NCBI GenBank assembly: GCA_948676835.1
Contig: CAPOZU010000004.1
Location: forward strand, 44,551-76,550
Reading direction: 5' to 3'
Source: an uncultured Clostridia bacterium
Lineage (GTDB): Bacteria; Bacillota; Clostridia; TANB77; CAG-508
DNA: 32,000 bases
Each line of letters starts with the position of its first letter. Positions within the stretch are counted from its first letter, which is position 1. Below are positions 5,871 through 8,371 of this stretch, in pieces. Below the pieces are notes generated by a model, which was given only the letters and a program-made list of their open reading frames with translations, did not search any database and was not told the DNA's origin. The translations under genes were made by a program, and so were the position numbers.

Positions 5871-8083
5871 TTTCTACGTTTTGGGACCACTGCTTTTTTA
5901 GTAAAAAATACTATAACAAAAATACTTCCAATTAATAAATCACTTCTTCCTTTAAGCTCTCCCACTCCACCAGTAACTGGTAATTCATATTGTTTGATAT
6001 TTGATACTACAATTTGTACATTTAATAAATCTTCTTTTTCACCATTAACTTCTATAATATCTAATTTTTGACTTCCTATAATATAATTTTTAGGTGCTTC
6101 TAGTTCTGTTAGTTTATAAAATCCATATTTTAAAGTATCAAAAACTAAGTTTCCATCTTTATCTGTTGTTCCATCTAAAATAGTAAATTCCTCATCATTT
6201 TCCACTACATCCCATGTTCCAGTCTCTTCGTTTTGTATTACTTTTTCTAATTTAAATTTTGCATTTTGAAGCAATATATCTGAGTTTGCTCTATCTACTT
6301 TTGTTATTTGTATTGTTCCATATTTATTATAAGTTAATGTTATGATATTATTTTCAAAATCTTCCGTTTTCTCACAATAATATCCTTCCACATTTTCTCC
6401 ATCTACTGTGTATTTTATTTCATTTCCAGCATCATCAAGTCTTTTTAAGTTATCCCATGTATGAGTCCAACCCATTTCTGGTGTTAATGTTTTTTCTTCA
6501 AGTTGACTATCATTTGAAACTTGTTTTAAATATACTTTTGATGATTCCTCTGCACCACCATTCCATATCTCTACTACAGTAATACTTTTTGTATTTTTTA
6601 TATAGTATATATTTATGACATTTTCATCACTATTGCTTGATATTGTTATGCTTTCAGGATCTATGCTATCAAAAAGATATCCTTCAAATTCTTTTATTTC
6701 TACTACTTCGCTGGATATTATAGTATTTTGAAATACTTGTTCTGGAACTTTTATAGATTCTAATATGTTTCCAGTTTCTTTTTCAATATAGTTTATTGTA
6801 TATTCTAAATCATTTCTTTTTTCATAAGTATTTGTTATGCTTCTGCTTCCTTCTGTAAATGTTGATTCAACTTCAAATAATATAGTATCATTTTCTATTA
6901 TAGCTTCATCCGTACTTGATATTGTATTTTTATACCCGTTAATTTCTGAGCCTACTTCTTTTAAAGTTAGCTGTGTTTTTTCTGTTACACCATCTTGCAC
7001 TATATAATTTGGAACTGGTATAGTCCATTCTAATATAGGATTTTCTCCACTTTCTATGATTTGAAGATTCTCATTTTCTAATGATAGAGTTCCATTATTA
7101 GCATAAGCTGATAATGAATTTGTAACCTCATATTCTAAAGAAAGTTCTTTAGGAATTGCATCATAATTTTGAACTCCAACAAATTCTTTTCTAATTATTA
7201 AATCTTTATCTTCTACATAAGTAGCATTTGGCTTCCATACTGCATAAAGTTCTTTACTCACAGGCGTTTTCGAACTTCCTAATCCATCTGACCAATTTAA
7301 AGGAATACTATCTCCACTAGTATATTGCGCTTCTTCTGCATCAGGTGTATCAGCCCATCCTAAAAATGTATATCCTTGTTTTTGTGGCACTACTGATGTG
7401 ACACTTAAATTAGCACTTGTACTTGCAAATTTATTTGTTGTTGTAGAAGGCATGTTTGTTACATTTTCTTCGTTTGCGTTATAATTTAGAGAATAATATG
7501 CATAAATTGTAGCATTAAACAAATCATTATATCTATACCATTGATAATCTTGTGGAAAGCTAAGATATCTACCACATTGACAGTATCCTTGGTTAGATGG
7601 AACTACATAATTACAATAATAATTAAATGATACCGTTCCAATTCCTGGTTTTATTGTTGTAAATTCTACTACTCCATATATTCCATCTCCATAACAATCG
7701 CCAATTTTAAGCCTATTGCCATTATCTGTAATGGAAATATCAATATAATATGTAGCATTATATAATAAAACTTCTCTTCTACAATAAGAACAATATTTAG
7801 AATATGTATTATTTATCTCTAATGAATTCTGCTCTCCTACATCCATTTCAAAAGATCCATTAGAAGTCTCTGTAGTTCCTCCATTTATACTCGTGCCTGA
7901 AAATTCACTTGGTTTTTTAGTAGCATCAACATAAACATTGGATGCCCTCTCTGATACTCCTTCTGCTGCTACACTAATACCATTTTCCTGTATTGGAACC
8001 ATACCAATCTCGTTTTCCTGTATTTCTTCCATCGCAATTGCTGTATTTTGAAATGCAGACAAAACAATAGAAATAATTAGCAA
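5855..8083 (-). CDS. LPXTG-anchored cell-wall surface protein with Cna-B/SpaA-type fold repeats; the 5' end appears to be controlled by a dinucleotide repeat
   Basis: The C-terminus has LPVTGG, a hydrophobic stretch and an RRKKSRF tail, which is a sortase signal. TIQITKVD...KFKL...DGTTDKDGNLVFDTLKYGFYKLTELEAPKNY resembles a SpaA/Cna-B prealbumin-like domain. GYTFLGWADTPDA...LYAVWKP resembles a Listeria-Bacteroides repeat. The N-terminus KKIKNKIIAILLIISIVLSAFQNTAIA looks like a signal peptide, but there is no ATG and no SD at the track start TTG 8083. See the finding on 8083-8210. Confidence 0.85.
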   Translation of the reverse strand: MLIISIVLSAFQNTAIAMEEIQENEIGMVPIQENGISVAAEGVSERASNVYVDATKKPSEFSGTSINGGTTETSNGSFEMDVGEQNSLEINNTYSKYCSYCRREVLLYNATYYIDISITDNGNRLKIGDCYGDGIYGVVEFTTIKPGIGTVSFNYYCNYVVPSNQGYCQCGRYLSFPQDYQWYRYNDLFNATIYAYYSLNYNANEENVTNMPSTTTNKFASTSANLSVTSVVPQKQGYTFLGWADTPDAEEAQYTSGDSIPLNWSDGLGSSKTPVSKELYAVWKPNATYVEDKDLIIRKEFVGVQNYDAIPKELSLEYEVTNSLSAYANNGTLSLENENLQIIESGENPILEWTIPVPNYIVQDGVTEKTQLTLKEVGSEINGYKNTISSTDEAIIENDTILFEVESTFTEGSRSITNTYEKRNDLEYTINYIEKETGNILESIKVPEQVFQNTIISSEVVEIKEFEGYLFDSIDPESITISSNSDENVINIYYIKNTKSITVVEIWNGGAEESSKVYLKQVSNDSQLEEKTLTPEMGWTHTWDNLKRLDDAGNEIKYTVDGENVEGYYCEKTEDFENNIITLTYNKYGTIQITKVDRANSDILLQNAKFKLEKVIQNEETGTWDVVENDEEFTILDGTTDKDGNLVFDTLKYGFYKLTELEAPKNYIIGSQKLDIIEVNGEKEDLLNVQIVVSNIKQYELPVTGGVGELKGRSDLLIGSIFVIVFFTKKAVVPKRRKKSRF

Positions 8084-8118
8084 AATAGCAATTATTTTAT
8101 TTTTTATTTTTTTGGCTA

Positions 8119-8193
8119 TTAAATTAATACTGTGTGTGTGTGTGTGTGTGTGTGTGTGTGTACAGCCTCAAGCATTACAGCAAATATTGACAT
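8119..8193 (-). other. SD+ATG leader ORF containing the (CA)15 tract; probable displaced 5' end of the LPXTG gene
   Basis: AGAAAGGAAAAGGTAGT precedes ATG 8193. The ORF reads MSIFAVMLEAV(HT)5VLI and stops at TAA 8121..8119. It is out of frame with the long ORF by an amount that losing one CA unit would correct. Confidence 0.6.
8131..8160. repeat. Perfect dinucleotide microsatellite: (TG)15 on plus, (CA)15 on minus
   Basis: Counted directly: 30 nt of uninterrupted tg from 8131 to 8160. Confidence 0.99.
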
Positions 8194-8371
8194 ACTACCT
8201 TTTCCTTTCTTTTGTACTCATGTTCTTTATTTTGAGTATAAATCAAGAACTTTGCAAAGTATGTTACAGTAGTATTACGGGATTTGCCAAAATTGTTTTG
8301 TATTCATTCGGATACAAAGAATGTAGTGATGCGTTTTGCGTGCATCACATTTGAAATGCACTTCAGGATTT

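Follow-up and report, generated by a model that had tools for sequence, protein, structure and literature searches.

An LPXTG surface-protein gene downstream of a CA tract

We analysed a 32,000-nucleotide (nt) stretch of DNA from an uncultured Clostridia bacterium (contig CAPOZU010000004.1 of assembly GCA_948676835.1), called the window below. Its minus strand carries a locus in which a promoter-like site, a short leader reading frame, a perfect run of 15 CA dinucleotides and a gene for an LPXTG surface protein follow one another (Table 1; all coordinates are window positions). The arrangement suggested that the number of CA units sets the frame in which the surface protein is read, and we compared the locus with its relatives in public assemblies to weigh this candidate phase switch against other explanations.

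The open reading frame (ORF) reported by gene callers has 742 amino acids (aa) and extends from TTG 8083 to the stop codon at 5857..5855. Upstream of this TTG the same frame reads ...GCT(HT)nSINLIAKKIKNKIIAI and stays open through the whole tract as far as 8167, where TGA 8170..8168 closes it, and sequence reading found no ATG, GTG or TTG in it between 8167 and TTG 8083. The TTG itself is not a credible start, because it has no Shine-Dalgarno (SD) sequence (the 18 nt upstream are aataaaataattgctatt) and lies inside the hydrophobic core of the signal peptide. An ATG at 8193, before the tract, follows a good SD, the core of which (AGAAAGGA, 8210..8203) ends 9 nt from the ATG. With 15 CA units the ORF that begins at this ATG is 24 codons long and reads MSIFAVMLEAV(HT)5VLI before its stop. 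ATG 8193 and TTG 8083 are 110 nt apart, or 2 mod 3, and therefore every tract whose unit number n is 2 mod 3 (14, 17, 20, 23) fuses the two frames; a script run on related loci confirmed this rule. In what follows a fused frame is called ON and the other two frames OFF. Both OFF frames reach a stop no more than five codons after the tract, and the window is OFF.

An earlier note on this DNA had proposed the SD and ATG 8193, the peptide MSIFAVMLEAV(HT)5VLI with its stop at 8121..8119, a gene frame that is open as far as 8167 and lacks a start codon ahead of TTG 8083, a 742-aa LPXTG ORF with a signal peptide, and a 110-nt distance giving fusion at 14 or 17 units. Read on the minus strand, the leader proved correct base for base and the open, startless frame was found as described. 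The ORF has a KKIKNK-type signal, LPVTGG, a hydrophobic stretch and a KRRKKSRF tail, and both the arithmetic and the script bore out the distance and the fusion rule.

The tract is the sole long simple repeat within the 32 kb window. Tandem Repeats Finder (TRF) scored it at 15.5 copies with 100% match, and a 20-nt CA pattern matched the window at seven overlapping positions compared to none in 100 dinucleotide-preserving shuffles, so that the tract is far beyond chance in DNA of 26% GC. Plus-strand ORFs that cross it (8112..8354 and 8132..8272, reading CVCVCV) were rejected as mechanical ORFs without support.

Table 1. Features of the minus-strand locus and of the gyrA-gyrB interval in the window
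Feature	Position	Strand	Basis or remark
Upstream gene	8792..8421	-	123 aa; own terminator hairpin 8410..8381
Promoter-like site, TTGGCA-18 nt-TAACAT	8261..8290	-	consensus scan; 3' of the upstream gene's terminator
Extended SD, AGAAAGGAAAAGG	8198..8210	-	sequence reading
ATG (8193..8191) and leader codons MSIFAVMLEAV	8161..8193	-	start of the 780/784-aa ORFs in L003, L004, L019, L020
Perfect (CA)15, proposed frame switch; (HT)n in the ATG frame	8131..8160	-	sequence reading, TRF
Linker (S)INLIA, then signal peptide KKIKNK-IIAILLIISIVLSAF-QNTAIA	8033..8130	-	sequence reading, gene frame
TAA closing the 24-codon ORF in the window's OFF state (n = 0 mod 3)	8119..8121	-	
TTG picked by ORF callers for the 742-aa OFF-state call	8081..8083	-	no SD; inside hydrophobic core
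Mature LPXTG surface protein	5855..8032	-	Pfam and motif reading
Cys-rich N-terminal tip block of the mature protein, allele-variable	7505..7900	-	BLAST, alignment
Flg_new domain	7495..7307	-	Pfam
Cna_B domain	6568..6353	-	PF05738, 7e-9, above cut-off
SpaA-like domain	6319..6056	-	PF17802, 9e-13, above cut-off
LPVTG motif	5983..5969	-	sequence reading
Stop codon of the 742-aa frame	5857..5855	-	
Intrinsic terminator-like hairpin overlapping the stop codon	5840..5871	-	hairpin scan
ParA/CbiA-like ATPase	24439..25587		gyrA-gyrB interval
VirB4/TraG-like P-loop ATPase	25588..27357		gyrA-gyrB interval
Leucine-rich-repeat protein	28053..29312		gyrA-gyrB interval

An N-terminal Sec signal peptide with n-, h- and AXA-type c-regions can be read after the tract and a short linker, and signal peptidase would be expected to cut after AIA (between AIA and ME), 3' of the tract. 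The C-terminus carries a sorting signal, LPVTGG...LLIGSIFVIVFF...KRRKKSRF, which comprises the LPXTG motif, a hydrophobic segment and a positive tail. A PDB match (4oq1, 3e-5) is to a cell wall surface anchor family protein. The match to the SpaH/EbpB pilin family of NCBIfam, NF033902, was partial and sub-threshold (38 bits, cut-off 95), and the window ORFs that were scanned contained no sortase domain; because of these two results we file the product as a generic LPXTG adhesin-like protein, not a pilin. Its Cys-rich tip block is hypervariable. When L005 and L007, two related loci, were aligned with the window by BLAST, the alignment was lost exactly over this block and the flanks were ~98% identical. 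Two tip types and two stalk types occur in at least four mosaic combinations (proteins P0001, P0006, P0011 and P0002), and the tip block recombines independently of the stalk, a pattern indicative of recombination and of diversifying pressure on the protein's distal domain.

The promoter-like site may serve as the promoter of the locus, and the region around it is partly kept in diverged alleles. Two short inverted-repeat motifs lie 5' of it on the minus strand, TGCATTTCAAATGTGATGCA (8360..8341) and TTTGTATCCGAATGAATACAAA (8318..8297), and both are mostly kept in alleles whose neighbouring sequence has diverged. These motifs may be regulator-binding sites that would add transcriptional control to the proposed switch.

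Tract length and reading frame in public assemblies

Protein relatives were very few and fell into two 90%-identity clusters. One of these contains the window's own 742-aa call (P0001), a 668-aa call from another allele (P0006) and a 780-aa protein (P0007) whose N-terminus, MSIFAVMLEAVHTHTHTHTHTHSINLIAKKIKNK, is exactly the fusion foreseen for 17 units. A metagenome contig search with the leader + CA DNA pattern gave no match, and the sole match in a metagenome protein search was L044, at 35% identity and in a repeat domain. The organism is common in public metagenome assemblies, the upstream neighbour gene being indexed in 190 data blocks.

Assemblies nearly identical to the window differ from it only in the number of CA units. 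Compared to the 15 units of the window, L001 (ERZ15143657) has 12 units and is also OFF; L003 (ERZ14499280), L004 (ERZ14212304) and L019 (GCA_948484795.1) have 17 units and are ON with 780 aa; and L020 (ERZ14864673, of which 2.2 kb was read) has 23 units and is ON with 784 aa. In each ON form a single called protein starts at ATG 8193 and begins MSIFAVMLEAV(HT)n HSINLIAKK. Alignment to the window gave 0 mismatches over 8229 bp for L001, 0 over 8343 bp for L003 and 1 over 6129 bp for L004, and in all three the sole gap was the tract. The tract is therefore hypermutable relative to its surroundings, because two to three units (eight in L020) differ with essentially no substitutions nearby.

The locus combines a long non-triplet repeat in the 5' coding region, length polymorphism, and natural ON and OFF forms, which are features of contingency loci. 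The earlier note had assigned the assembled sequence to the OFF state, which its 15 units (n = 0 mod 3) give, and had proposed a comparison of repeat numbers, which turned up 12, 17 and 23 units in public assemblies. Its predicted 17-unit fusion exists in L003, L004 and L019, and the contingency-locus architecture that it recognized is borne out by ON and OFF forms on an otherwise near-identical background.

Diverged alleles carry an extra CG after the tract and would therefore be ON at n = 1 mod 3. The tracts are 15 units + CG in L005, 11 in L006, 8 in L015, 8 in L016, 9 in L022 and 12 in L036, and L034 has TA(CA)10; all seven are OFF. Across all alleles there is no difference in the 33-nt stretch that begins with the ATG and ends at the tract; this holds even for L015, whose overall identity is ~84%. 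The SD core is unchanged in the diverged alleles L005 and L015, where the remaining locus is 84-98% identical. Over the 85 codons after the tract, the signal-peptide frame of L015 has no ATG, GTG or TTG, and because of this lack of a canonical start its signal peptide is translatable only from the upstream ATG.

A similar flank and tract occur at an unrelated locus in a Clostridia metagenome-assembled genome from the Hadza gut (L017:890-930), the sole match of the leader + CA pattern in the genome collection. The 13-nt flank is identical and is followed by eight units, GCTTGAGGCTGTA(CA)8. There a multi-pass membrane ORF of 308 aa has this sequence at its 3' end (closing with ...KLEAVHTHTHNTF and a stop), after which a terminator follows. 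Such a gene tail may have left the window's leader, (M)LEAV(HT)n, as a relic, or the two may have a common origin.

Nearly all Logan contigs, which are built at k=31, end at or beside the tract, and only L015 and L034 cross it. A contig that starts inside the tract gives a lower bound on its length. Counts were accordingly taken only from Logan contigs that span the tract or hold left-flank bases, and CA counts at contig ends were rejected as true lengths because of k=31 truncation. Three contigs begin at informative points: L016 with GCTTGAGGCTGTA(CA)8CG, L022 with TTGAGGCTGTA(CA)9CG and L036 with CTGTA(CA)12CG, each being the first 31-mer that ends in the post-tract CG. Since the de Bruijn graph branches at this point if a longer tract coexists, these starts suggest mixed tract lengths within the three samples, and they fit co-existing strains as well as variants within one clone. 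Two metagenome contigs from the European Nucleotide Archive (ENA) begin with Illumina adapter (L004:1-22 and L012:1-45, ...AGACGTGTGCTCTTCCGATCT) and were therefore assembled from untrimmed reads, which calls for caution with contig ends.

The commonest alleles have a second and more unusual peculiarity. These type B tip alleles (P0006 together with the 695-aa proteins of the P0002 cluster, of which P0002, P0008, P0009, P0013 and P0015 were read) occur in at least 60 public contigs, assembled from many runs by SPAdes or in Logan, and in all of them a single additional base, a C, separates the frame of the signal peptide from that of the body. This +1 break is absent from the type A allele of the window. 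In one version the break reads ...AGT GCT ATT C GGA CCA ACA... (L005:2952; L005:2940-2965, also L006-L014) and in the other ...AGC ACT ATA C GGT CCA ACA... (L002:276; L002:264-290, also L022-L043). The extra C is at one position in both, and the two versions are deeply diverged, with a synonymous divergence (dS) of ~0.85. The ratio of nonsynonymous to synonymous divergence (dN/dS) is 0.25 in the signal frame upstream of the break (75 codons) and 0.31 in the body frame downstream (the 147-codon tip), which indicates purifying selection to either side of the break. Stalk dN/dS was discounted with respect to the frameshift because unbroken type A alleles share these stalk sequences; only the tip block and the stretch directly before the break are informative.

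At the break a ribosome in the 0 frame would meet CGG, a codon that occurs once among the 9134 codons of the window's ORFs, and translation across the break would yield a putative trans-frame peptide ...KPSDFNISAI-GPTTTNDYDNTGIR.... In glass-sponge mitochondria, +1 frameshifting takes place at an extremely rare CGG_(A), with the inserted base 5' of GGA (Atkins et al. review, PMC5009743), and the type B break resembles it in local pattern, a rare CGG with an inserted C 5' of GGA. For type B alleles we thus take seriously the possibility that a hungry CGG causes a programmed +1 frameshift, at somewhat less than even odds; the alternative is a long-lived lesion that these alleles share. If true, this would be a chromosomal bacterial surface-protein gene with hungry-codon +1 frameshifting comparable to that of Ty3 or glass-sponge mitochondria, superimposed on a mutational ON/OFF switch, and a rare instance of bacterial programmed +1 frameshifting outside prfB.

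A candidate translational phase switch and its alternatives

Taken together, we consider it likely, with a probability of roughly 0.8, that the locus is a slipped-strand translational phase switch, or contingency locus, of an LPXTG surface protein. Translation would start at ATG 8193 behind its good SD and pass through the leader and the CA tract, and only n = 2 mod 3 would carry it into the signal peptide and the 2.2-kb adhesin/pilin-like body. Slipped-strand mispairing during replication, the presumed cause of the length changes, would add or remove CA units and thereby switch the gene among three frames, one of them ON and two OFF, and in the latter the protein would be lost; by the same process a single clone would be expected to switch back and forth. 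The leader and (HT)n would be cut off with the signal peptide. Because the tract lies 5' of the predicted signal-peptidase site, in-frame length changes should leave the mature protein unaltered, identical whether the tract has 17 or 23 units. Direct fusion of the two frames is the simplest mechanism, because no terminator and no stable RNA structure lie between leader and gene. A variable tip combined with a switch suggests immune or phage pressure on the adhesin.

Several observations weigh against a phase switch. Some 20 contigs carry the 742-aa call, which is OFF, compared to four assemblies that are ON; the five tracts that carry the extra CG and are spanned in full (L005, L006, L015, L034) are all OFF, and so are L016, L022 and L036, which are anchored in the left flank. 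The polymorphism could be one between co-existing strains and not within a clone. The ON protein would have 36-42 residues before the charged n-region, which is unusually long. In the commonest alleles, those of type B, the additional fixed +1 break means that the right tract length alone is insufficient, and we give somewhat less than even odds to the reading that these alleles are decoded by two recoding events, the CA-tract switch and a programmed +1 frameshift. Finally, Illumina stutter could shift a consensus by one unit; stutter cannot explain 12 versus 15 versus 17 versus 23 units, because these differences exceed one unit.

The excess of OFF forms would fit a surface protein that is costly or a target of immunity and is kept mostly silent, and it is also the main argument for the first alternative, in which the gene is a decaying pseudogene that has lost its start or frame and the tract a neutral microsatellite drifting in length. 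The second frame break of the type B alleles would fit such decay as well. Against it, the 2.2-kb ORF is intact in every allele, with no internal stops, despite a dS of 0.6-0.9 between alleles and a GC content of 26% at which stops arise easily. Leader, SD and ATG are fully conserved, natural ON forms occur in four assemblies, and dN/dS between alleles is ~0.25. The gene thus appears to be under purifying selection rather than decaying, and we regard the pseudogene as improbable.

Less probable still is a constitutive protein made from another start, either internal or non-canonical (TTG 8083, or ATA/ATT near 8119), for which the upstream ORF and the tract would be irrelevant. Gene callers do choose TTG 8083, but it has no SD and its product, MLIISIVLSAF..., would lack a charged n-region, and in L015 the signal frame has no canonical start at all. 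An internal start would also leave unexplained why the leader is conserved and why the frame from tract to signal peptide is open in all alleles. The TTG 8083 or GTG/ATG starts chosen by callers (P0001, P0002, P0006, P0011) were rejected since they leave no usable signal peptide.

We give even less weight to a regulatory leader peptide of the Pil1 type (PMC3894217), in which the length of the short ORF, set by the repeat, would control a downstream terminator and the adhesin would be translated from its own start. An SD, an ATG and a repeat-bearing short ORF do stand 5' of an LPXTG gene, as in Pil1. There is no terminator-like hairpin between 8121 and the gene, however, and the 243-nt leader region folds no better than its shuffles (z = 0.43), and the attenuation model was rejected for want of both terminator and fold. 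Moreover, in the adhesin frame neither an SD nor a start precedes the n-region of the signal peptide or lies inside it (in L015, there is none at all), and in the ON assemblies leader and adhesin are one continuous ORF. Least probable of all is an error of assembly or sequencing in the tract length that hides a gene which is really in frame everywhere. Dinucleotide tracts are stutter-prone and the k=31 contigs mostly break off there, but independent SPAdes assemblies at 4-107x coverage span the tract with 12, 15, 17, 17 and 23 units, and differences of 2-11 units are too large for a stutter-shifted consensus.

Neighbouring genes and known systems

The next surface-type gene (1468-3486, minus strand) encodes 672 aa with a weak FIVAR match and is allele-variable: the L005 and L007 strains have a 737-aa version of it (L005:7454-8007) at ~70% DNA identity, compared to ~98% for the genes between. 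A homologue of TraG/TrwB-type coupling proteins (14959-16698, plus strand) lies beside small unknown ORFs and opposite pcrA (12003..14318), in a region that may be the remnant of a conjugative element. The genes gyrB (29929..31854) and gyrA (21106..23541), neighbours in many bacterial genomes, are ~6 kb apart here, and the interval between them (23700-29900; genes in Table 1) has 20-22% GC compared to ~30%, and resembles an inserted island.

Phase variation of surface proteins by way of repeats is well documented in mucosal pathogens such as Helicobacter, Neisseria, Haemophilus and Campylobacter, and H. pylori lacks classical mismatch repair. To our knowledge, the switches known in Clostridia are DNA inversions. 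The architecture described here is textbook and in itself fairly ordinary; what is notable is that the unit is a dinucleotide, that the protein is of the LPXTG type and that the host is uncultured and Clostridia-like, and the earlier note's remark that dinucleotide contingency loci are rarely described in Gram-positive anaerobes fits our literature searches. The locus would add a classical slipped-strand architecture, with natural ON and OFF forms, from an uncultured low-GC gut-type bacterium, and it indicates that phase-switch loci can be verified from public assemblies alone. It also illustrates how gene callers mis-annotate such a locus, as a 742-aa protein with a TTG start or as truncated proteins of 666-695 aa.

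Among known systems, sclB (scl2) of Streptococcus pyogenes has CAAAA repeats just after the start codon of a gene for an LPXTG collagen-like protein. As proposed here, translation of a Gram-positive LPXTG protein depends on the number of short repeats between start codon and signal sequence; the differences are a pentanucleotide unit, an unrelated protein family, and a cultured pathogen with experimental support for switching. Closer in repeat unit are oipA (hopH) of H. pylori and related outer-membrane protein genes, which have CT dinucleotide repeats in the region that encodes the signal peptide (PMC10564699). There too, the dinucleotide repeat lies in the 5' coding region at or before the signal peptide and its frame sets ON or OFF, repeat number varies widely between isolates, and in-frame changes leave the mature protein unaffected (PMC10564699). 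In contrast, oipA encodes a Gram-negative outer-membrane protein and not a sortase-anchored LPXTG protein of a low-GC Gram-positive-type organism; its repeat is CT, inside the signal peptide, whereas here CA units precede the charged n-region, and the two genes have no sequence homology.

In Streptococcus gallolyticus Pil1, ribosome-mediated anti-termination acts at a hairpin, and pilA has its own ribosome-binding site and ATG (PMC3894217). Pil1 and Pil3 share with our locus a short leader ORF with SD, ATG and a simple repeat 5' of an LPXTG pilin or adhesin gene, and frame changes alter the length of the leader peptide in both (PMC3894217). Our locus differs from Pil1 in that it has no hairpin and no separate start, the ON state being a direct fusion. 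The NanH3 sialidase of Gardnerella is reported to be subject to slipped-strand mispairing in a homopolymer (bioRxiv 10.1101/2020.09.16.300947); here too a Gram-positive commensal has a protein associated with its cell wall that a simple repeat within the gene switches, and the system differs in its homopolymer repeat, its actinobacterial host and its unrelated protein. Within the Clostridia, CwpV of Clostridioides difficile is also a phase-variable surface protein, but it and the other invertible-promoter switches operate by site-specific DNA inversion (PMC2784873, PMC9286219), not by repeat slippage.

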